IMG/VR virus record: IMGVR_UViG_3300020048_000058 | DNA length: 64,000 bases | Strand: one strand, 5' to 3' | Source of the DNA: a virus | Part shown: positions 4,620 to 60,263 of the stretch, piece after piece | Position numbering within the stretch: the stretch's first letter is position 1 | Layout: the number at the start of each line of letters is the position of its first letter | Translations under genes and position numbers: made by a program | The notes under the pieces: generated by a model | The model's input: the letters and a program-made list of their open reading frames with translations, nothing else | Told to the model about the DNA's origin: nothing | Databases searched by the model: none

Positions 4620-4813
4620 ATCAAATCGCATCTCAGACTTTAAGTAGATTAAATGGTCGTAACAAATCAGTGTTAATTGGCAAGGCTTACCCCCTAGGGA
4701 ATAGTGGATCTGTATTCTCTGGGATGGGTAAAAGTTTTGTAGCCAAAGGGGTGGTTACTGGTAAGGCGATCGCCTTTAAGCACAATGGTAAATGGCAAGT
4801 TGTACAAGGTTAA
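4607..4813 (+). CDS. hypothetical protein (68 aa)
   Basis: Co-oriented ORF. Its last codons form the first unit of the 16-bp tandem repeat. Confidence 0.4.
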   Translation: MATVNQIASQTLSRLNGRNKSVLIGKAYPLGNSGSVFSGMGKSFVAKGVVTGKAIAFKHNGKWQVVQG

Positions 4814-4976
4814 ATGAGTACAAGGTTAAATGAGTACAAGGTTAAATGAGTACAAGGTTGAATGAGTACAAGGTTGAATGAGTACAAGGTTAAATGAGTA
4901 CAAGGTTAAATGAGTACAAGGTTAAATGAGTACAAGGTTGAATGAGTACAAGGTTGAATGAGTACAAGGTTAAAAT
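4802..4976. repeat. 16-bp tandem repeat GTACAAGGTT(A/G)AATGA, 10 full units plus a partial 11th, with an 80-bp higher-order period
   Basis: Read directly. Units start at 4802, 4818, ... 4946, and 4962 is partial. The variant pattern is A A A G G A A A G G A. Confidence 0.97.
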
Positions 4977-7265: not shown

Positions 7266-8960
7266 ATGGGAATGTTTTCGGATATTGATTATTCTTTGAT
7301 TGTTTTGCAATTAGAGAAGGCAATGGCTAATGGTGTGGCTACCTTGGATTCAAATACTAAGGTTCCTAAAGCTCAGATTAGTTTAACCGCTTCTGATGTT
7401 GGTGCGATCGCGTCTACTGGCAACGAAGTTTTAACAAGTTTAAACGCCGCGTCTGGCACAATTTCATCTGGGCTTTTACCGTCTTATGTTGATGATGTCC
7501 TGAGTTATACAAACCTTGCCGGGTTCCCAGGTACTGGCGAAGCTGGAAAGATTTACGTTGCAGAAGATTCCAATAAAGTTTACCGATGGTCGGGTTCTGT
7601 TTATGTTGAGATATCGAGTTCTGCTACTGCGGGAGAGGCTTTAAAACTAACCACGCCACGGACAATTGAAGCGACGGGAGATGCAAGTTATTCGGCATCT
7701 TTTGATGGTTCAACCAATGTTACAAGTGCGATAACACTGGCAACGGTCAATAATAATACTGGTTCTTTCGGTAGCGCTAGTTCAATTCCTGCTATTACTG
7801 TCAATGCTAAGGGTCAAGTAACTGCGGTTTCAACTAACAGTATCGGGAATGAATTAATTGCATTACAATCTTTAGCTGACACCCCAGGATTTTTAAAGAA
7901 AACTGGTAACGGGACTTATTCTATTGATGTTAATTCCTATCTTTCATTGGCAGGTGGGACTATCACGGGGGACTTGATTTCAACTAGCGCAACGGCATCA
8001 ACATCAACAACTACAGGGGCTTTAAGGGTCGCTAGTTTAGGGGTTACGGGTGCTATTTTTGCTGGTACTGTTAGTGCCAATTCTTACAATTTGATTCCTA
8101 TTTGGAGAGGAGAGGGAAACATAGGCACAAATACAGTAACAGGAGTTAGTGCGCTTTTGTCCAATACAACAGGAGGGAATTTATCTGCCTTTGGAGTTAA
8201 TTCGCTTCTGTCCAATACCACAGGATGGAATTTATCTGCCTTTGGAGTTAATTCGCTTCTGTCCAATACCACAGGATGGAATTTATCTGCCTTTGGAGCT
8301 TTTTCGCTTCAGTCCAATACAACAGGAGGGAATTTATCTGCTTTTGGAGTTAGTGCCGGACGCTTTATTTCCGATGGCGTTACGGGGCTAACAATATCAA
8401 ATAACTCTTGTTTCTTCGGCATGAACACCAAAGGAACCCAGAACGCAACCAATGAGAACGTATTTGGCTACAACGCCACCGGAAACGGCTCAAACACCGT
8501 AACAATTGGTGATTCAAATATTACCAATACCTACCTAAGAGGTGTGATATCAACTAATTCCACAACACCTTCAACCTCTCCCACCACGGGAGCTAGTGTA
8601 ATTCCTGGGGGTCAAGGGGTTCAGGGAAATCAATATGTTGGGGGTTTTAGTTCTTTGGGTGGGGACGCAAGTCATCCAGGGATTAAGATTAAGGTGCTAA
8701 CGGGAACTACGGCAGCAACACAAGGGGGGGGTGTAGGAATAGCTCATGGAATAGCTGATATAAACAAAATAATTTCAGTTAATCTTTGGGTGAATACAGG
8801 TCAGGGGTTGGGGTTATTTGCACCCCCTAATTATACAAATGGAGCCATCCAATATAATTTTATGCTTTATGGGGGTCATATTTCTGTAGAAAATCACCCA
8901 TCAAACAGTTACAACCTTTTGTCAAAACCAGTCACAATAACAATAATTTACACGGCATAA
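7266..8960 (+). CDS. tail fibre protein
   Basis: N-terminal ATLDSNTKVPKAQISL and FPGTGEAGKIYVAEDSNKVYRWSGSVYVEIS motifs are typical of phage tail fibres. Also contains Gly/Ser/Thr-rich repeats. Confidence 0.75.
   Translation: MGMFSDIDYSLIVLQLEKAMANGVATLDSNTKVPKAQISLTASDVGAIASTGNEVLTSLNAASGTISSGLLPSYVDDVLSYTNLAGFPGTGEAGKIYVAEDSNKVYRWSGSVYVEISSSATAGEALKLTTPRTIEATGDASYSASFDGSTNVTSAITLATVNNNTGSFGSASSIPAITVNAKGQVTAVSTNSIGNELIALQSLADTPGFLKKTGNGTYSIDVNSYLSLAGGTITGDLISTSATASTSTTTGALRVASLGVTGAIFAGTVSANSYNLIPIWRGEGNIGTNTVTGVSALLSNTTGGNLSAFGVNSLLSNTTGWNLSAFGVNSLLSNTTGWNLSAFGAFSLQSNTTGGNLSAFGVSAGRFISDGVTGLTISNNSCFFGMNTKGTQNATNENVFGYNATGNGSNTVTIGDSNITNTYLRGVISTNSTTPSTSPTTGASVIPGGQGVQGNQYVGGFSSLGGDASHPGIKIKVLTGTTAATQGGGVGIAHGIADINKIISVNLWVNTGQGLGLFAPPNYTNGAIQYNFMLYGGHISVENHPSNSYNLLSKPVTITIIYTA
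8160..8363 (+). repeat. 4 x 51-bp in-frame tandem repeat inside the tail fibre gene (SNTTG(G/W)NLSAFG(V/A)(N/F)SL(L/Q))
   Basis: Units start at 8160, 8211, 8262 and 8313. Units 2 and 3 are nearly identical. Confidence 0.9.
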
Positions 8961-18649: not shown

Positions 18650-19369
18650 TTAGGGAGCAAGCCGAGCTTTCCCTAATCTATTTTTTTCATACCAAGCTGA
18701 AATCTCAGGAACCCAATCCTGAGTATGGGCCCACATCATTTCAGAGAGTTTTTGAATCTCTAACTGGGCATCTTTTTTAAATCTTAAATCGAGAAAATGT
18801 AACAGTGAACGCAGGTTACAAGACATAACAAAATGCTGTCTGAAATCGAACGGGATTAAACCTCTAGCGTGTTCTTCTGACATTCCATTTAAGATATTAT
18901 TTTTATACATTTCACAAGCATCTAAACAATATCTTAAATGGAAATCTCTTTCAAAATGAGAATATTTATATTTTTTCCCTTGGCGGTCAACATATTCACC
19001 AACGGGTCTTAGGTAAAATACATCCTCAATATCACGTTTACCATCAACAACATCAATTATTCTTTGACCTGAATAACGCATCGACTCAACGCTAAAACTC
19101 ATTATCCTGTGTCGCGTTGCTTGCTGCATTACACTGTGAGGGAAATAGCCAACATTAAATACTATGTAAGCTGTTTCGGCACAACTCCAATGCCCTCTAT
19201 CACCTGCTAATAATCTTTTAACTGCTATCTCGCCACACTCTTTTTCTGGGGGGATTTTATCAATGCCTTCAAACACATAATTCTCGCTATAACATTGATG
19301 CAATGCCAGATAAATCATCTGTTGGGGATTAGCTGTTTTTGATAAAACCTCAACCTTGAATTTGTCCAT
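18650..19369 (-). CDS. thyX: flavin-dependent thymidylate synthase ThyX
   Basis: ThyX signature RHRIMSFSVESMRYS (RHRxxSxxxxSxRY). The start is taken at MDKFKVEV. Confidence 0.85.
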   Translation of the reverse strand: MDKFKVEVLSKTANPQQMIYLALHQCYSENYVFEGIDKIPPEKECGEIAVKRLLAGDRGHWSCAETAYIVFNVGYFPHSVMQQATRHRIMSFSVESMRYSGQRIIDVVDGKRDIEDVFYLRPVGEYVDRQGKKYKYSHFERDFHLRYCLDACEMYKNNILNGMSEEHARGLIPFDFRQHFVMSCNLRSLLHFLDLRFKKDAQLEIQKLSEMMWAHTQDWVPEISAWYEKNRLGKARLAP

Positions 19370-19416
19370 TAGCCTCCTCTTTTGTGCATCTTTAGTCAAG
19401 AAACAATGCAATCGTT

Positions 19417-20184
19417 ATTTCAATCCATAAAATAGGCAATCGTCTATTGCGGGATGGATACTTAAATCATCATCAACTAAACAGGGATGTTTCAATCCAT
19501 AAAATAGGCAATCGTCTATTGCGGGTTTAAACGGGGAACCCAATTGTTTTTAGTCAGGATGTTTCAATCCATAAAATAGGCAATCGTCTATTGCGGGTTT
19601 TGCTAAGTCGGAATGGTAATTAGCATCAAAATCGTTTCAATCCATAAAATAGGCAATCGTCTATTGCGGGTTCCCTTTACTTTTAAACTGATAATAGCTA
19701 TCAGGGTTTCAATCCATAAAATAGGCAATCGTCTATTGCGGGAAAAAGCATACGATACAGCTATAAAAGAAGGTTATCTATTAGTTTCAATCCATAAAAT
19801 AGGCAATCGTCTATTGCGGGAAAACCCCTGCATAGGCTTTTCTACCATAGAACGGTTTCAATCCATAAAATAGGCAATCGTCTATTGCGAGATCAAAGCC
19901 ATTAAGAATAGGATAAAAAACATCCAAGTTTCAATCCATAAAATAGGCAATCGTCTATTGCGGGTTTGGGTCTATCTGTTGGGTTACGACCGGGGGATTA
20001 GTGTTTCAATCCATAAAATAGGCAATCGTCTATTGCGGGTTCCGTTTACTCTGGGAACCATTCAAGGCATCATTGTTTCAATCCATAAAATAGGCAATCG
20101 TCTATTGCGGGTTTATAACCATGTTCTGGGGATGATGCCAGAAGAAGGTTTCAATCCATAAAATAGGCAATCGTCTATTGCGGG
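19417..20184. CRISPR. CRISPR array: 11 x 37-bp repeats GTTTCAATCCATAAAATAGGCAATCGTCTATTGCGGG, with 10 spacers of 34-41 bp
   Basis: Repeat starts are 19417, 19489, 19561, 19634, 19706, 19784, 19855, 19928, 20003, 20075 and 20148. Repeat 1 has A for G at position 1. Repeat 7 ends GCGAG. All spacers are unique. Confidence 0.97.
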
Positions 20185-20203
20185 AGCTTAATCCGCAATT
20201 GTT

Positions 20204-21877
20204 TCAGGCGTTTCTATCGAAATCACCTAAGCTCATTCGATTTATTATAGCATGAGTTTTGGCGGTTTCGGCAACTAAAAAATCGTGAACCCCGTTTTTA
20301 AACAAATCATCTGGAATTGTTATGGTGTCTGACTTTTTGGTTTTTTTCTTGGTTGCCTTTTTAGAAGAGCTAGGGGTTGCCGAATTTTTATTAATCAGGA
20401 ATTTATACCAGAAATTATCGGACAATTCCACACCTTGATTGATTGCCATTTGAGCTAAACCTTTTAACTTAATGTTCTGTCCTGAGTTGACATCACGAGC
20501 AACGGTATAACCACAATTAGAGCATTTGTGAGTGCGTTGAGATAGCTTTTTCTTCTCTTGATGTCCACACTTCGCACAACATAAAGTAGTTCCCCAATTA
20601 TCAACCCGAATCACTAATTTTCCGTGTTCCTTTGCTTTGGTTTCTAATAAATCAATAGCTTGACCAATAGCTACGTCACTCCCTGTTCTGTTACTTCCTC
20701 GTTTGCGTTTTTGATTATTTTTATCGTAGATAACTGTACCATTTTCGGCAACCACTGGATTTCCTTCTGTGTCTAATTTTGCCTTGGCTTTAGCTTTTCG
20801 GTAGACGTTGGCGGGTTTGTAATCCTCAACAAAAATCACGTCAAACCAATTGATTAAATTGGTAGAATGCCAGTGATTGAATGATCGGCGGTGACGGGCG
20901 ATTTTCTCATGAAGTTTAGCAATTTTATTATTGAGTTTCTCCCAATTCTTAGTTTTCCCCTCGTTCATTCGATACTTGCGAGATAATTGTTGCTGCATTT
21001 TCCTTAGACGTTTTAGCGATCGCTTTAAAGGTTGTGCAGCCTCAATAGTATGACCATTATCCAATGCCATAACAAACTGATGTCCGGGGTCAATTCCACA
21101 ACATAACCCTGTCTTCTTGGCTTGCTTGACAGGGACGGACGCAGTTAATTGTACATACCACCCCGACGCTTTTTTGCAAATTTTCATCGGGTTAAAATCG
21201 CAACCATACCACCGTTTATCAAATCCAATTACCTCGATATAACCCAATTTTGGAATATTGATCTTACTGTCCTTAACACCTAGATCCTTAGCGTTGTAAT
21301 GGATTAAAGTCATTACCTTATCTTTAGCTGTTTTGAAACGTGGACGGCTGTGGCGACCCGCTAGAAATCCCTCCCAAGCCTTTGATAGTTCATGCGCTAC
21401 ACCTTGAATGAATTTTGCCGGGCAATCGGTGAAATTAACTTTTCGCTCCTCACCTCTAACTAAATAAGTCACAATCCGATCCTTGTGGTGCTGATGTCCA
21501 AATACCTTTAGGAACCCGTATAGTACCGACTTTTTAGAATCCAGTGAGTCAATAATAGGGCTATTTTCATCAATGGCGACGGGATGGATTAACCCCCTTT
21601 TCTTCTCGACTCGCTCAATCCCCATCTTCCAATCTGGGATCTCAATTCGTACCCATTGCTTGAGCTTGCGGTCGTATCGTTGCAGGGGAGTTGCAGGGAC
21701 GTTAGACTTTGACAGTTTATCGTAAGGGTTCCACTCGTTAAATTCCTCTATCAGTCCTAATGAGCGATTCCAAACCCACTTACAAACTAGCATCCAATCT
21801 TCTAGGGTTCGCTCTTGTTCTGAAGATAGAATGAGTTTAAACTCCTTTGTTCGCACATTTTCGCTAAAATTAGACAT
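20204..21877 (-). CDS. cas12: TnpB-like RuvC nuclease adjacent to the CRISPR array: candidate compact type V (Cas12-class) effector, 557 aa
   Basis: N-terminal TnpB-type RTKEFKLILSSEQERTLEDWMLVCKWVWNRSL. RuvC-I is CCGIDPGHQF, RuvC-II is VIFVEDYKP and RuvC-III is ARDVNSGQNI. Zn ribbon CCAKCGH...HKCSNCGY. The array begins 19 bp after the stop codon. Confidence 0.8.
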   Translation of the reverse strand: MSNFSENVRTKEFKLILSSEQERTLEDWMLVCKWVWNRSLGLIEEFNEWNPYDKLSKSNVPATPLQRYDRKLKQWVRIEIPDWKMGIERVEKKRGLIHPVAIDENSPIIDSLDSKKSVLYGFLKVFGHQHHKDRIVTYLVRGEERKVNFTDCPAKFIQGVAHELSKAWEGFLAGRHSRPRFKTAKDKVMTLIHYNAKDLGVKDSKINIPKLGYIEVIGFDKRWYGCDFNPMKICKKASGWYVQLTASVPVKQAKKTGLCCGIDPGHQFVMALDNGHTIEAAQPLKRSLKRLRKMQQQLSRKYRMNEGKTKNWEKLNNKIAKLHEKIARHRRSFNHWHSTNLINWFDVIFVEDYKPANVYRKAKAKAKLDTEGNPVVAENGTVIYDKNNQKRKRGSNRTGSDVAIGQAIDLLETKAKEHGKLVIRVDNWGTTLCCAKCGHQEKKKLSQRTHKCSNCGYTVARDVNSGQNIKLKGLAQMAINQGVELSDNFWYKFLINKNSATPSSSKKATKKKTKKSDTITIPDDLFKNGVHDFLVAETAKTHAIINRMSLGDFDRNA

Positions 21878-21905
21878 ACCTATTTAAGAAATTGAAACGT
21901 ATGTA

Positions 21906-21934
21906 TTGACATTTCCATTATATACAACTATAGT
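21906..21934 (+). promoter_or_regulatory. sigma70-type promoter TTGACA-17 nt-TATAGT, firing away from the cas12-like gene
   Basis: -35 at 21906..21911 and -10 at 21929..21934, read directly. Confidence 0.6.
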
Positions 21935-21940
21935 GGAATC

Positions 21941-22087
21941 ACCGACGTTTAGATCGGCAAGCCAAAAGCTGCCCTTGGAGCCGAAAGGATTAACGATTAG
22001 GCGATGAAGAGGGAATATTCTCTAGCCAGATATGGTTAGCAATTTTAAAAATAGGTAATCAACTTAAAGGGGCTCCGGCCCCTTTTT
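21941..22087 (+). ncRNA. candidate tracrRNA / small non-coding RNA of about 147 nt, bounded by a promoter and a terminator
   Basis: No ORF longer than 10 codons. AAAATAGGTAATC (22048..22060) can pair over 13 bp (one G-U) with minus-sense repeat positions 13-25 (GAUUGCCUAUUUU). It ends in GGGGCUCCGGCCCCUUUUU. Confidence 0.4.
22069..22087 (+). terminator. intrinsic terminator GGGGCTCCGGCCCC followed by TTTTT (probably bidirectional; it also follows minus-strand gene 22100..22534)
   Basis: GC-rich 5-6 bp stem, a T5 run on plus, TTTAAGTT on minus. Confidence 0.65.
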
Positions 22088-22099
22088 AGTAGACTCCAT

Positions 22100-22534
22100 C
22101 TATTTTTGAAACCGAAATAAAGAGTCAGCCTTGACAATCTCAATCTCAACACAAAGGGCTTTCAATCTCTCAAAAGCCACCACCGGATCGGCTTCAAAAT
22201 CAACTGGACTAGATCCGGTCATCGGAGCGTCGGACACCGCCCCCAATGGCTCAAAGGCACGGGATTTGTTATTCCAAAAAAACACTCTGTTAATATGTCG
22301 CTCTATTGCTTCCGGTGTTTCGAGAAAACAATAGATAAGTCCTGCGACAATAGCCTGCCTGACATCGGTTCTGAATCGCCTTTTATCGAGTTTAATTGTC
22401 CATAATTCAGATAGAAATTCCTCGTCGGTTTCTACATCATACCAAAGGCACTCACAGGAAAATGTATGTAGGTCGTTGTCGTGAATCTTTGGGGTAGTTT
22501 GAAAGCCTTTTTTAGCGAGTTTAGTTGTTTTCAT
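22100..22534 (-). CDS. hypothetical protein
   Basis: 144-aa ORF. Its start overlaps the stop of the upstream methylase gene. Confidence 0.6.
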   Translation of the reverse strand: MKTTKLAKKGFQTTPKIHDNDLHTFSCECLWYDVETDEEFLSELWTIKLDKRRFRTDVRQAIVAGLIYCFLETPEAIERHINRVFFWNNKSRAFEPLGAVSDAPMTGSSPVDFEADPVVAFERLKALCVEIEIVKADSLFRFQK

Positions 22535-46042: not shown

Positions 46043-48427
46043 ATGCCAAATATATCAGGAAAGTATAATTTTAAGACAAGAGTTGGCAATACACCTGAAT
46101 GTGTTTTTTTATATAAAAAACTTCAGGATACGACAAGGGCTTTCAACTACCAAACCGATATTAAGACCTATCAACTATCTCATATTGTGGGGGGAGTCAA
46201 TGACGGTAGACCCCATTATGCTGTTGTTGAACTACCCGACAATACAGGGGATTATGACTCAGTTTCAGACGCAAAGAACCGAAAAAGAACGGCGAAAAAA
46301 AAGGATGCGCCATGTGTCGCCCCAGACGCAGGAGATGACGGTTCGAGTGCCGAAGATAGAAGGGTTGTTACAGTATTGTGGACTATTCGACACAGAGATT
46401 ATATTCCCCCAACTGGGTTAATAGGAAAACTGGCGGGTTGGTGTGGTGCAACATCTGGACACCCTTATTACACAGAAGCAGAGTTAATGGCTTTAAATCC
46501 GACCCCACTGACTAAAGCTACTTATGCTTTTTTTAATAAATATTTCTCAGCGGCTCAAGTAGCTTTTGAGGGATATAAACCCTATCTTCCTGTTGATAAA
46601 GCAGTATTTTGTCATGATATACCCGCAAATGTAGGTGGGCAAGTTTCTTATATGTTAGATGTTCAATGGAATAAGCTAGGATTTAAACCAGAAAGAATCT
46701 CTGCATCCGATGGCTTGTTTTATGGGGAGGGACTTAATATGAATACTGACCTTCCATCCCCTTATGAAAATTGGGCAGACTTCTTTGAAGGATACGACGC
46801 AACTCCCGTGACTGCCCGGCTAACAGCAATTCATCAACCTGTATCTGGAAACGAATTGTTTGCTACAAATGACTGTGGCAGTGATTCTCTTGACGGTTGG
46901 TGGCTTTATGATTATTCATCAGGCGATAAGCAGACTGTTCAGATTAGAGGCATAAATGCTATCAATGAATATGACGCTGATAGGGAGTTTATTTGTTGGC
47001 GTGGCAGGATTGCCGACTACGGGGCTTGGGTTGCCTATATGAACACCATGCTAGAGTTTTGGGGCGTGCTAGATAACGACAGGGCTGAGTTAAAGCTCGT
47101 TGTATCTATGGCTGACAACGCTGTGGGTGGTAGTTGTGTTATTGGTGGTGCTGGAGGTGGTGCTGGTTACGCACCCGACCCCACACCTCCAATAACTCCA
47201 TTAATAGGATCAGCAACATTTCACGGGCGCTATTGTGATATTTTTGTTAACTATCAAAAGAACGGAATAGTTAAAGAATTAAAATTACCAATAGATTTTC
47301 CAACTCGTGTAACCCATGTTAGTTACAGTGAGAACAAATTTTATGACACAAGTTATCCCAGAGAATCACCAGGTCAAAGAATTGAAAAACCTTATTTTGC
47401 GGAGTGGTTTTCAGGTCGAGTAAATATTGATAAAAACAATATTTATGTTGATATTATTTATGAGATTTATCGAGAATATGAAGACGGGAAAAAGATATTT
47501 CCTAATGGCCCCTCATCGGGATTATCGTCGAATTCTCATAATACTTGGCCAGAACGACCGGGAATAATAAGTCGATGGAATGAAATAAATAGAAACAGTC
47601 AAGGGTCTCTAACTGGTATTGATAGTTCAACGGGGAGCGATGAAGATTATCTAGCCTGTCTTCTTGAACAAAACACTGAACAAGTTTTCGCGCGACCAAC
47701 TAGAGATAAGTTCAACAAAACAGTTCGCTATACTATAGACAAAAATAGTTTTTCAATCATTAACACCCAAACATTTACAGGAAATCACCAAGAAACCGAC
47801 AACTTATTTACAGATAATTTCTTAAAGAAAAATACAATATTAGATATTTCTGGTTTAGCAGGATATAAAAAATATAATTCCACTGGGAGCTATACAAGCA
47901 ATGAAGATCCTACTCCTATTATTTTAAACACATCAGCAAATCATCAAGGGTTTGTTGGATTGCCTAAACCTTATTTTCAGGTTAGCTGTAATCCAGTTAA
48001 TTTTTCAGTAACAAACCAATGGATTGAGTCACCTTTTAAGTTTAATCCCTTACGGGACTATTCTTGCCTTGTTGCCAATGACTTTCTAACGTTGAAATCT
48101 AACTGGGACGATATCTGTTGGTTGTTTTATTTGATGATGGAACAGCCTTATATAGACAGGACTAAACCAACAACTCCGATTCAGTTCAATCAAAGATGTC
48201 AATTAAAAGGTGCAGGATACAAAGCAAACACAAATAAATATTATCTTTCTTATAATGAAACAAACGAGGGTTTAGCTAAAGGTTTAGGGGTTGCCCCTGG
48301 TTTCTTTGACCTCTATATTGAACATGAGAGAATGCGGGGTTATCCGGTTGTAAAGGATGGTAAAATTACTAGATGGTTAAGAATTAGTCCCGATTCTTTT
48401 CCACTATTTGAGCCGGGTGGTATTTAA
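46043..48427 (+). CDS. large hypothetical (probable structural) protein, 794 aa
   Basis: Uninterrupted 2.4-kb ORF. Confidence 0.65.
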   Translation: MPNISGKYNFKTRVGNTPECVFLYKKLQDTTRAFNYQTDIKTYQLSHIVGGVNDGRPHYAVVELPDNTGDYDSVSDAKNRKRTAKKKDAPCVAPDAGDDGSSAEDRRVVTVLWTIRHRDYIPPTGLIGKLAGWCGATSGHPYYTEAELMALNPTPLTKATYAFFNKYFSAAQVAFEGYKPYLPVDKAVFCHDIPANVGGQVSYMLDVQWNKLGFKPERISASDGLFYGEGLNMNTDLPSPYENWADFFEGYDATPVTARLTAIHQPVSGNELFATNDCGSDSLDGWWLYDYSSGDKQTVQIRGINAINEYDADREFICWRGRIADYGAWVAYMNTMLEFWGVLDNDRAELKLVVSMADNAVGGSCVIGGAGGGAGYAPDPTPPITPLIGSATFHGRYCDIFVNYQKNGIVKELKLPIDFPTRVTHVSYSENKFYDTSYPRESPGQRIEKPYFAEWFSGRVNIDKNNIYVDIIYEIYREYEDGKKIFPNGPSSGLSSNSHNTWPERPGIISRWNEINRNSQGSLTGIDSSTGSDEDYLACLLEQNTEQVFARPTRDKFNKTVRYTIDKNSFSIINTQTFTGNHQETDNLFTDNFLKKNTILDISGLAGYKKYNSTGSYTSNEDPTPIILNTSANHQGFVGLPKPYFQVSCNPVNFSVTNQWIESPFKFNPLRDYSCLVANDFLTLKSNWDDICWLFYLMMEQPYIDRTKPTTPIQFNQRCQLKGAGYKANTNKYYLSYNETNEGLAKGLGVAPGFFDLYIEHERMRGYPVVKDGKITRWLRISPDSFPLFEPGGI

Positions 48428-58483: not shown

Positions 58484-59050
58484 ATGTTGTTAACCAACCG
58501 CTTCAATCAAATCGACTCCCAAATTAATCAAGTCGAGTCTGATATTGCCAAACTTCAAAACCAATTATCAGAACTGCAACAACACCGCCAACACTTGCAA
58601 GCTGTAGAACAAGCCTGTGAGAGCGCCCTAACCCAAACTGAAACCGCTTTGATGATGTTGAATCATATTGACCCTGATTGTGTCCAAACCTTTAAGACTG
58701 CGATGTTGGCTAAATTTGACGGTGCTATTCCACAACTCCCAGAGGCTACCGACACCGACACACCGGAATCAGAACCTATTACACCAACAGAACCCGATAC
58801 CGATAATACAGACACCATCACGGTTGACCCTATCCTAGAATCACCGGAAATCGACACTACACCGGAATCAGAACCCCGTACACTTGCATCTGTTGGGTGT
58901 GCAGTGTTTAACCCTTCTACTGCCGATTTTGACAACCTCAAAGCATGGGTACGGAGTCACCAGGGGGATGATAAAACCCGACTACAAGGCACTTTGACCC
59001 GACGCACTACATGGGAATACGCCGCCAAATTGATTCTTGAAAGTCTGTAA
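58484..59050 (+). CDS. coiled-coil protein with an acidic Thr/Pro/Asp/Glu-rich linker
   Basis: DIAKLQNQLSELQQHRQHLQAVEQ followed by TDTDTPESEPITPTEPDTDNTDT. Confidence 0.55.
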   Translation: MLLTNRFNQIDSQINQVESDIAKLQNQLSELQQHRQHLQAVEQACESALTQTETALMMLNHIDPDCVQTFKTAMLAKFDGAIPQLPEATDTDTPESEPITPTEPDTDNTDTITVDPILESPEIDTTPESEPRTLASVGCAVFNPSTADFDNLKAWVRSHQGDDKTRLQGTLTRRTTWEYAAKLILESL

Positions 59051-59156
59051 ACCTCAAAACCTAATCAGATAGGGACTTCCAACCTATCTGTAAGACTGAT
59101 AAGTAAAACATAATAGTAAAATGTTTTACCTATAAGTAAGATTAATGTAAAACTAC

Positions 59157-59185
59157 TTGACAACTGTAAGACTTTTAGTTATACT
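59157..59185 (+). promoter_or_regulatory. cassette promoter P4: TTGACA-17 nt-TATACT
   Basis: Read directly. Confidence 0.65.
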
Positions 59186-59293
59186 GTTTTACATAGGGGT
59201 CAAGAAAACACCTCTTAAAACAACAGAGTCAGAAGGGCTACTTTCTCAGGGACACCCAACCGACTCCACTACATCCAAAAAGGACTTAATGAC

Positions 59294-59668
59294 ATGGTAG
59301 CTCAAATCACGACCGCGATCACGACTGAAATCATCTCAACCTACGTTTCAACCTTTGACGGCCTCCAAATCGACACGATTCAAATGACTTACCCGGACGG
59401 CTCGGTTGAAATCCGTTATGGATGGATGGAAGAAGACTTCTACACAGGTGAAACAACCTACTATATCCGAACAAAATCCGGCGCCGTTCTGAATAGCAAC
59501 TGGAAGACCACCCGTAATAACAAGTGGTTGGTTAGTTACAAATCAATTAAACTCACCGCTAAACAAACTGAAATTATCAATCATAATTCTGCCCTCGAAG
59601 TGTTAGCAAGTCCTGAGAATTACAGTCACGCCGAGTACCTCAAAGCAAAGGCTGATCTGGGATTCTAA
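59294..59668 (+). CDS. hypothetical protein
   Basis: 124-aa ORF. Confidence 0.55.
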   Translation: MVAQITTAITTEIISTYVSTFDGLQIDTIQMTYPDGSVEIRYGWMEEDFYTGETTYYIRTKSGAVLNSNWKTTRNNKWLVSYKSIKLTAKQTEIINHNSALEVLASPENYSHAEYLKAKADLGF

Positions 59669-59679
59669 AAACAATAACC

Positions 59680-59698
59680 GGGGGTGAAATATCCCCCC
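59680..59698. repeat. stem-loop GGGGGTGAAATATCCCCCC (copy 3 of 3)
   Basis: Read directly. Confidence 0.8.
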
Positions 59699-59735
59699 TT
59701 CTGGTAACATTTCAAAACACGTCTAAGGTAAAACA

Positions 59736-60263
59736 ATGCAATCACTTCAAAGCCCTACAACTGCCACTAATACAGCCGTCCTACCTAACACACCTCGCGA
59801 TTTACGGATAGCACTAGCCTCCGGTGAAACGTTAGGAATTAACCGACCTTTCCTTGATATCCAACGCGATTTATACCGCAAAGTCCCCGATAGTTATTAT
59901 GCTTTCAAAAGTAAAGGGGGAACTCAAATTATCTACCTCTCATGGGAATTATTAAGCTGCTGCATGGATTATATTACCCCCGGATGGGAGAAGTCCATCA
60001 GTCTAAACCAGATTGGGGAGCGGGTAACGGTTGAATGTACCGTAACCATCCATAGTTCCGACGGGTCATTCAAACGTACAGCTACAGGGAGCGACACTCT
60101 ACTCGACGAGGGATATGGGGGGCCTGTAGTTGATGCAGAAAGTCAGGCATTTCGCCGGGCGCTCGCCAACTTTGGATTCTGTAGTTATCTCTGGGATAAA
60201 GAAATCAGTAATGCCCTGATAAAACGGCTCAAAGGTCAAACCCCGCCCACTTTTTGGGGTTAG
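59736..60263 (+). CDS. Rad52/Sak-type single-strand annealing protein
   Basis: IIYLSWELL...VTVECTVTIH...AESQAFRRALANFGFCSYLW resembles the Rad52/Sak (DUF1071-like) core. Confidence 0.55.
   Translation: MQSLQSPTTATNTAVLPNTPRDLRIALASGETLGINRPFLDIQRDLYRKVPDSYYAFKSKGGTQIIYLSWELLSCCMDYITPGWEKSISLNQIGERVTVECTVTIHSSDGSFKRTATGSDTLLDEGYGGPVVDAESQAFRRALANFGFCSYLWDKEISNALIKRLKGQTPPTFWG

Follow-up and report, generated by a model that had tools for sequence, protein, structure and literature searches.

Organization of the locus

The 64,000-nt stretch of viral DNA IMGVR_UViG_3300020048_000058 (referred to here, at its full length, as the window) contains a compact type V CRISPR-Cas locus, made up of a gene for a TnpB-derived effector, a CRISPR array on the same strand and, upstream of the gene on the opposite strand, a candidate trans-activating CRISPR RNA (tracrRNA). 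Its features are as follows, with the evidence for each in brackets.

19417..20184, - strand: CRISPR array of 11 x 37-nt repeats and 10 spacers (repeat scan)
20185..20300, - strand: leader, comprising a 19-nt gap and the 3' end of the effector gene (spacer polarity, conservation)
20244-20252, - (gene) strand: conserved extended -10 promoter TGCTATAAT (consensus match only)
20204..21877, - strand: effector gene, encoding a C2c8/V-U2-like TnpB-derived protein of 557 aa (open reading frame, motifs, profile matches)
21879..21899, no strand assigned: AR1, a partial repeat in inverted orientation (+ strand sequence CCTATTTAAGAAATTGAAACG), immediately next to the ATG of the effector gene (repeat scan)
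21906..21934, + strand: predicted sigma-70-type promoter, TTGACA-17-TATAGT, divergent from the effector gene (11/12 consensus matches)
21940..22087, + strand: candidate tracrRNA of ~150 nt, with a structured 5' domain, a hairpin, an anti-repeat and an intrinsic terminator (conservation, covariation)
22039-22060, + strand: anti-repeat GCAATTTTAAAAATAGGTAATC of the candidate tracrRNA (pairs with the gene-strand repeat)
22066-22087, + strand: intrinsic terminator of the candidate tracrRNA (hairpin, compensatory stem changes)

The repeat, GTTTCAATCCATAAAATAGGCAATCGTCTATTGCGGG on the + strand and CCCGCAATAGACGATTGCCTATTTTATGGATTGAAAC on the gene strand, is 37 nt long and occurs 11 times between 19417 and 20184, where the chance expectation is 0. 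The 10 spacers measure 34-41 nt, no two are alike, and they run from s1, the newest (20112-20147), to s10 (19454-19488); none of them targets the window itself. The stop codon of the effector gene lies 19 nt (20185-20203) from the first repeat. A first-pass annotation, made from the sequence alone, had described 11 repeats of 37 bp with 10 unique spacers 19 nt past the stop codon of a 557-aa open reading frame (ORF), and both the repeat scan and the ORF coordinates agree with it. It had also taken the terminal repeat as the only degenerate one, which holds in part: the gene-distal terminal repeat (19417-19453, which reads ..GAAAT) does deviate by a single mismatch, but so does the repeat at 19855-19891.

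The viral context that had been proposed is borne out: Planktothrix phage PaV-LD is a relative, with ~85% identity to the window over long stretches. Among the 83 other ORFs of the window (≥75 aa, 85% of the window), 20 Pfam families were matched at E≤1e-5, and these matches included no Cas1, Cas2, Cas4, Cas6, Y1 transposase or Tn7-type gene. The absence of Cas1-, Cas2- and Cas4-like ORFs noted at first reading thus stands, and the description of the locus as a minimal phage-borne TnpB-derived type V locus without adaptation genes is supported.

A divergent V-U2-like effector

All three acidic residues of the RuvC domain were located, in the motifs GIDPG (D263), FVEDY (E352) and RDVNSG (D462), so the D-E-D triad is complete, and the CxxC...CxxC zinc ribbon corresponds to C434/437/452/455, as the motif-based reading had it. 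Two alignments, one of 21 homologues and one of 31, show no variation at D263, D462 or the four cysteines; E352 is present in the effector, and in the sister clade P0007-P0011 a glycine replaces the RuvC-II glutamate. Pfam matches were Cas12f1-like_TNB (3e-16), OrfB_IS605 (2e-12) and, weakly, HTH_OrfB_IS605.

The top NCBIfam model was V_cas_c2c8 (NF038192), matched over the full model (positions 2-457) with 302.2 bits (E 7.9e-90); the same model gave 451 bits for gp061 of Aphanizomenon phage CL131 and 360 bits for the homologue P0014. The top PADLOC profile was Cas12u2 (E 2.6e-107), followed by PDLC01698, a profile labelled Cas12f (3e-99). The NCBIfam Cas12f2 model reached 36 bits, with a cut-off of 450, and guided_TnpB reached 175 bits, under the 302 of C2c8. 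Homologues with 36% identity bear the NCBI name C2c8. Matches at E≤1e-30 were confined to 75 clusters (50% identity) among 1.84 billion representatives, and the relatives come from Floridaenema, Geitlerinema, Dolichospermum, Nostoc and cyanophage contigs. The nearest isolate-phage homologue is CL131 gp061, with 30% identity over 84% of the protein.

An AlphaFold2 model of the effector had a mean predicted local distance difference test score (pLDDT) of 79 and a predicted template modelling score (pTM) of 0.69, with a disordered C-terminal tail (497-557). Its closest structures were ISFba1 and ISDra2 TnpB, Cas12p, LaTranC, Fanzor2 and Cas12f, with Foldseek E values of 1e-19 for ISFba1 TnpB, 3e-14 for LaTranC and 2e-13 for AsCas12f; among solved structures there is none for V-U2. 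The profile and structure comparisons that the first-pass annotation had proposed therefore give C2c8/Cas12u2 as the best profiles and a TnpB/Cas12 fold. Because the top curated matches are C2c8 and Cas12u2, the effector is, by its sequence, a divergent, longer branch of V-U2 rather than a protein without a family. Two earlier suggestions are thereby overturned: that it matched no recognizable family (the relatives are named C2c8 by NCBI and the CL131 locus is published, PMC6293099), and that it was an unplaced intermediate between TnpB and the Cas12f/V-U-like systems.

An ordinary IS605/IS607 TnpB, the outcome that would have spoken against a CRISPR effector, was ruled out: IS200_TnpB gave 151 bits (cut-off 425) and IS607_TnpB 82 bits (cut-off 350), both far below threshold, there is no tnpA, and neither a Y1 nor a serine recombinase adjoins the gene. 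The related idea that an IS200/IS605-type tnpB stands by chance beside an unrelated array, to which the Pfam OrfB_IS605 and HTH_OrfB domains and the TnpB structures might be thought to point, is effectively refuted by these same scores, by the lack of tnpA and of transposon ends, by a gene-array linkage kept across dozens of loci with different repeats and by an anti-repeat RNA that co-varies with the repeat.

As a separate observation, the C-termini of many V-U2-like proteins (P0009, P0016, P0018, P0019, P0024-26, P0046, P0017 and P0023) consist of a lysine-rich linker followed by QLSLF, QLTLF, QLSLW or LDLW. The QLSLF-type ends resemble the bacterial beta-clamp-binding pentapeptide QL[SD]LF. 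In the window protein, a weaker clamp-like motif, TIPDDLF, is found at ~519-525, with ~35 further residues towards the C-terminus. No relevant literature on clamp-binding motifs of TnpB or Cas12 came up in a search.

A candidate tracrRNA upstream of the effector gene

The 220 nt upstream of the effector gene are kept in 21 of 21 loci, including L031, a related locus with a very different repeat, at 78% protein identity. Of the 37 base pairs that RNAalifold predicted in the small RNA, double compensatory changes were seen in 6. Several G.U pairs fit the + strand only, becoming A.C mismatches on the other, and the folding z-score was -2.0 for the + strand vs -0.8 for the - strand. Rfam gave no match at E≤1 within 19300-22300. 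Immediately before the terminator lies GCAAUUUUAAAAAUAGGUAAUC, which is complementary to the gene-strand repeat, and the anti-repeat shifts in step with the repeat both in L031 and in L005, a Floridaenema locus whose effector is 38% identical. A covariance model (E 0.014) also placed the small RNA upstream of this Floridaenema gene, in the matching position and on the matching strand.

Predicted duplex energies were -25 to -28 kcal/mol for cognate anti-repeats with the gene-strand repeat, -14 to -22 kcal/mol for most non-cognate combinations of lineages and -10 to -20 kcal/mol for anti-repeats with the other-strand repeat. Separation is incomplete: the near-identical candidates of the window locus (W), L027 and L028 cross-pair with one another's repeats, and the L005 candidate pairs with the W repeat at -25.2, with the L028 repeat at -24.1 and with its own repeat at -27.7 kcal/mol. 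From these sequence patterns, we infer that the guide is probably tracrRNA-dependent. It had been pointed out that the array occupies the position of the guide-RNA scaffold in TnpB elements; the array does lie directly downstream of the gene, but the scaffold-like RNA appears to be a separate gene, upstream and on the other strand.

The promoter of the small RNA reads TTGACA-18-TATAAT in L026-L030 and is deleted in PaV-LD. As part of the effector mRNA, AR1 would complement the repeat's 3' half, and in L031 and L005 its sequence also changes along with the repeat; it may have a part in autoregulation or may be the leftover of an inverted repeat unit.

Two further observations concern this region. 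In the interval that separates the effector gene from the divergent small-RNA gene, a 14-bp palindrome-like segment, TATAGTTGTATATA (~21915-21935), is flipped between the window and the L026-L030 lineages, and a -10 box for the small RNA is kept in either orientation. In loci of the CL131 clade (L002 5483-5503; L040 4992-5020), an anti-repeat of 21-29 nt is found on the gene strand between the effector gene and the array, which suggests, on sequence grounds, a tracrRNA there too.

Array orientation and spacer turnover

To follow the array across related phages, we used a sibling set of 20 IMG/VR contigs and 1 mis-binned contig from a metagenome-assembled genome (MAG), whose versions of this effector are 94-99% identical. 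Each array is made up of 2-16 repeats, and after further loci were added, 30 arrays yielded 94 distinct spacers. Common spacers are gene-distal and unique ones gene-proximal in the sibling arrays, as illustrated by the spacer orders 24 25 26 07 27 23 in L015 and 28 29 25 26 07 27 23 in L017. A C-to-T repeat variant is confined to the gene-proximal (newest) units in L017 and L014. The spacer polarity and the distribution of this variant point to leader-proximal insertion with repeat duplication, and since spacers are gained on the gene-proximal side, the leader is the 3' end of the effector gene. The leader-repeat junction TAAGCT/C is conserved, and leader features are kept in the W, L028 and L031 groups.

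The position of the array, downstream of the effector gene on the same strand, recurs in at least 26 related loci, with repeats of 36-37 nt that end in TTGAAAC, TTGAAAG, TTGCAAG or similar. Four indirect lines of evidence support transcription of the array in the direction of the gene, as had been proposed from its degenerate end: the polarity of spacer gain, the extended -10 on the gene strand, the 5'-side protospacer adjacent motif (PAM) described below and an anti-repeat that pairs only with the gene-strand repeat. Judging from the compared arrays, spacer acquisition is ongoing in these phages without adaptation genes of their own.

Several spacer families (39/46/51, 45/69, 17/43, 23/60 and window s7 vs L021_s1) represent independent captures of the same target site in diverged alleles, and one target site was captured in both orientations, with a GTT flank on each strand. 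These repeated captures are consistent with PAM-guided acquisition hot spots.

PAM and targets

The PAM was derived from 19 protospacers with at least 80% identity. In their 5' flank, position -3 is G in 14 of the 19 (p 8e-7) and position -2 is T in 18 of them (p 4e-9), which gives a 5'-GTN PAM; the 3' flank shows no signal. A 5'-side PAM is a geometry common to type V and type I systems. Two window spacers have perfect matches:

19671..19705, - strand: window spacer 7, 35/35 match to IMGVR_UViG_3300044644_001981, 5' flank GTT
19598..19633, - strand: window spacer 8, 36/36 match to the plasmid-like metagenome contig Ga0208359_1001842, 5' flank GTA

The target of spacer 7 is a divergent allele of a plasmid-like gene, and the sibling phage contig that contains it has the same CRISPR cassette. 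An exact 29-nt stretch of window spacer 1 was absent from IMG/VR and from the JGI metagenome contigs.

All 7 records matched in PLSDB (72,556 records) are plasmids of Planktothrix agardhii. About 13 spacers match the plasmid backbone, namely CyRepA1, a DUF3987 primase-like gene and their neighbours, with 3 spacers falling in the CyRepA1 replication gene (best match 36/37). These targets lie in coding regions on both strands, with no promoter focus. The targeted plasmids encode DISARM, MmeI, type I restriction-modification, the BPTD_3080 endonuclease and toxin-antitoxin genes. A further ~8 spacers match a three-gene module common to P. agardhii plasmids and PaV-LD-like phages, which in the window is found at 58484-60263 (+), its protein identity to NZ_LR882956 p4 reaching 87%. 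Pfam assigned no function to the targeted plasmid-like genes.

None of 74 spacers matched any of 50,697 isolate phage genomes at E≤1. In a 1.37-Mb local collection of related phages, 6 of 94 spacers had matches, all of them in the plasmid-like module, the only phage part matched, and the DnaB-anchored loci yielded no extra protospacers.

An accessory cassette of PaV-LD-like phages

The segment 18607-22136, comprising thyX, the array, the effector gene and the 220-nt spacer region, stands where PaV-LD has 370 bp, and only 6 of 35 DnaB-anchored related IMG/VR contigs carry the cassette at this site. A version with 94-95% identity occupies a second genome site in L026-L030. At that second site, PaV-LD (HQ683709; L001 4879-5260) has an unannotated, decayed cassette at ~68.77-69.18 kb, in which the effector's first 22 codons are joined to two repeats and one spacer; the small-RNA gene is present, and a 28-nt deletion takes its promoter. 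Megablast of the locus against isolate phages gave PaV-LD as its sole match, limited to the upstream 250 bp. The window's 794-aa protein (46043-48424) used as a query returned one locus only. The patchy presence, the two sites and the decayed copy in PaV-LD indicate a mobile or recombining accessory cassette and not a core phage feature.

Next to the array, thyX (Pfam Thy1; 18650-19411, -) lies 5 nt past the last repeat on the same strand and may be cotranscribed with the array; it is missing at the syntenic site of PaV-LD. A 3.4-kb contig with effector and array (L004, JBIPMB010000293.1) was found in a 'Gammaproteobacteria' MAG from Lake Mendota, a placement that is almost certainly a binning error. 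Elsewhere in the window, an intergenic gap has a tandem repeat (4802-4974) with 10.8 copies of the 16-nt unit GTACAAGGTTAAATGA, at 97% matches, which could represent iterons or regulatory binding sites; another, at 8142-8352, contains 4.1 copies of a 51-nt unit within an ORF.

Proposed mechanism

We propose that the locus is a phage-borne type V cassette of V-U2 (C2c8) lineage, an accessory module of PaV-LD-like P. agardhii phages, working as follows; we give this reading a probability of about 0.6. The array would be transcribed on the gene strand, from the putative promoter inside the effector gene's 3' end, as the 3' untranslated region of the effector mRNA, or both. The divergent RNA of ~150 nt would pair, through its 3'-proximal anti-repeat, with the repeat of the CRISPR RNA (crRNA), acting as an omega-RNA-like scaffold or tracrRNA that the effector may bind. 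The effector with its tracrRNA:crRNA would then recognize DNA flanked by 5'-GTN, the motif supported by the flank statistics, and presumably cut it. New spacers appear to be put in at the gene-proximal repeat by machinery that the phage does not encode; turnover is seen directly in the arrays, and the likeliest source of adaptation proteins would be the Cas1-Cas2-Cas4 of the host type I-D system, with the same PAM and a resembling 37-nt repeat. The likely benefit to the phage would be the removal of plasmid-borne defences and/or rival mobile elements from the infected cell.

A type I-D system whose repeat measures 37 nt is present in all P. agardhii isolates studied (PMC9398003). In the same orientation, the repeat of the window aligns with it at a score reached by 0 of 2,000 shuffles. 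The PAM of type I-D is 5'-GTN. A bolder version of the proposal, in which a tracrRNA-dependent V-U2 nuclease borrows host I-D adaptation and its array destroys defence plasmids during infection, is possible, and we put it forward tentatively, as something that would more probably fail than hold in full.

Several points weigh against the proposal. The effector scores 302 bits, below the curated NF038192 cut-off of 350, and the promoters are predicted by consensus match only. The Floridaenema match of the covariance model is weak, and AR1, next to the start codon, is not accounted for by the mechanism. Only 23 of 94 spacers have any match, and most plasmid matches contain 1-5 mismatches and come from strains isolated elsewhere. 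A 25-nt core of the window repeat was found, among 185,579 species genomes, only in the mis-binned phage contig L004, and the repeat had chance matches only in PLSDB; the published P. agardhii I-D repeat, for its part, had no exact match in species-genome contigs or PLSDB. The GTN PAM, the 3' repeat end AUUGAAAC and the likeness to the I-D repeat would equally fit host I-D use of the crRNAs. Every functional step of the mechanism is inferred, and the counter-defence benefit of plasmid targeting is conjecture.

Alternative explanations

The alternative that survives best takes up the last of these ambiguities: the phage array would be a guide supply for the host I-D system, its crRNAs processed and used by host Cas6 or Cas10d-Cascade and the array extended by host Cas1-Cas2-Cas4, with the TnpB-like protein as a passenger or in another role. 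The protospacers show the known I-D PAM, the 37-nt repeat aligns with that of P. agardhii I-D, the phage has no adaptation genes, and the repeat end ATTGAAAC is the usual 8-nt handle of Cas6-processed repeats, an ending widespread in many phyla. Arrays with repeats ending in TAWGGATTGAAAC were found at 120 loci across many phyla, with 0 from Planktothrix, a distribution that carries no information on this point. We nevertheless consider this explanation unlikely. Gene, array and small RNA travel together, at two genome sites and in relatives down to 38% identity; covariation of anti-repeat and repeat has no role in type I; repeats diverge strongly between close effector lineages (L031), whereas the host I-D repeat is fixed; the phage repeat was found in no host genome among the species genomes searched; and the catalytic triad is conserved. 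We argue that the effector uses the crRNAs because the anti-repeat RNA co-varies with the repeat and because gene, array and RNA stay linked across very different repeats.

A second alternative accepts the effector as crRNA user and changes its activity: like Cas12m or Cas12k, it would be an RNA-guided DNA binder or repressor that silences plasmid replication or phage or host genes. Several miniature TnpB-derived effectors bind without cutting (PMC10691335; review table), and a regulatory role was suggested by the CL131 authors (PMC6293099). The RuvC-II glutamate is replaced by G in the sister clade P0007-P0011, and AR1 beside the start codon hints at autoregulation. The window effector itself keeps D263, E352, D462 and the zinc ribbon, and the targets are spread over coding regions on both strands with no focus on promoters, which makes this explanation quite unlikely.

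Lastly, the cassette might serve mainly in competition between phages, as superinfection exclusion among PaV-LD-like strains, with the plasmid matches as by-products of shared genes. Window spacer 7 is indeed perfect in a sibling phage contig, and ~8 spacers match the phage/plasmid module homologous to window 58.4-60.4 kb. Against this stand the sparse phage matches reported above (6/94 spacers in 1.37 Mb of related-phage DNA, all in one plasmid-like module, and 0/74 in 50,697 isolate phage genomes) and the ~13 spacers in plasmid-only genes such as CyRepA1 and DUF3987, and we regard it as decidedly unlikely that phages are the main target.

Comparison with known systems

A V-U2 locus was published in 2018 for cyanophage vB_AphaS-CL131, with no tracrRNA reported and a proposed regulatory role (PMC6293099). 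A cyanophage V-U2 locus is therefore an already known kind of system. The two loci share a single TnpB-sized effector with C2c8/Cas12u2 as its best profile, an array directly downstream on the same strand, no other cas genes, a cyanobacterial and cyanophage distribution and ~11 repeats of 36-37 nt. They differ in effector length, with 466 aa in CL131 vs 557 aa in the window (insertions within the N-terminal half, plus a C-terminal tail of 80 aa), in their standing relative to the NCBIfam cut-off (CL131, with 451 bits, is above it and the window effector below), in their unrelated repeats and in the gap between gene and array, which is about 250 nt in CL131 and 19 nt in the window. The tracrRNA candidate is upstream and antisense in the window, whereas the CL131 clade has its anti-repeat on the gene strand, in the interval from gene to array. 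For V-U2, the PAM, the targets and spacer turnover were previously not known, and a 2024 review table enters no PAM for it. New here are a divergent branch of the effector family, a tracrRNA candidate located upstream in antisense, population-level evidence for continuing polarized spacer gain in phages that lack adaptation genes, a GTN PAM and the finding that defence plasmids of the host are the main identifiable targets.

Cas12k, the effector of V-K (V-U5) CRISPR-associated transposons, is likewise a cyanobacterial TnpB-derived protein of similar size without adaptation genes. It is tracrRNA-dependent, and its repeats have ends of the GTTGAAAG type. A 5'-GTN PAM is also listed for it (review table). 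Unlike the window effector, with its intact triad and no Tn7 genes nearby, Cas12k has an inactive RuvC and is associated with the Tn7-like TnsB/TnsC/TniQ, and V-K arrays are very short whereas arrays of the window type turn over quickly.

With Cas12f, TnpB and TranC, the effector shares a WED-REC-RuvC-zinc ribbon fold, predicted in its case, and possibly a long scaffold RNA with a repeat-derived handle and 3' guide, for which the window has a candidate. It nevertheless falls far below the family cut-offs of Cas12f2 and TnpB. The TnpB scaffold, the omega-RNA, overlaps the 3' end of its gene, where the window has the array, and the window's candidate scaffold is a separate gene on the opposite strand; unlike TnpB, the window locus is not mobile as an insertion sequence element.

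Other phages also carry CRISPR-Cas systems. The Vibrio phage ICP1 directs a type I-F system against the PLE island, a case of phage CRISPR-Cas acting on a mobile element of the host cell, and Cas12j, Cas-lambda and Cas12p, encoded by huge phages or phages of Escherichia coli, are compact and come without cas1 and cas2. All of these belong to effector families other than that of the window. ICP1 has its own adaptation genes, and the targets of the window system are resident multi-defence plasmids.

Implications

V-U2 (C2c8) is among the last of the originally predicted type V-U groups without experimental characterization. The locus and its ~30 natural variants provide a complete testable design, comprising an effector, a crRNA orientation, a tracrRNA candidate, a GTN PAM and natural targets. 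They also offer a model for the origin of split guides in TnpB-derived effectors, with the tracrRNA placed differently in sister clades, and for the dependence of minimal systems on resident type I adaptation modules.

For the biology of these phages, our findings suggest that a phage array can stay up to date without phage-encoded adaptation genes, and that phages of a major harmful-bloom cyanobacterium turn CRISPR on host plasmids that bear DISARM and restriction systems. If the reading in which host I-D adaptation is borrowed is true, the locus would be a type V cyanobacterial counterpart of ICP1 vs PLE, and V-U2, and by analogy V-K, would have evolved as satellites of type I-D adaptation.

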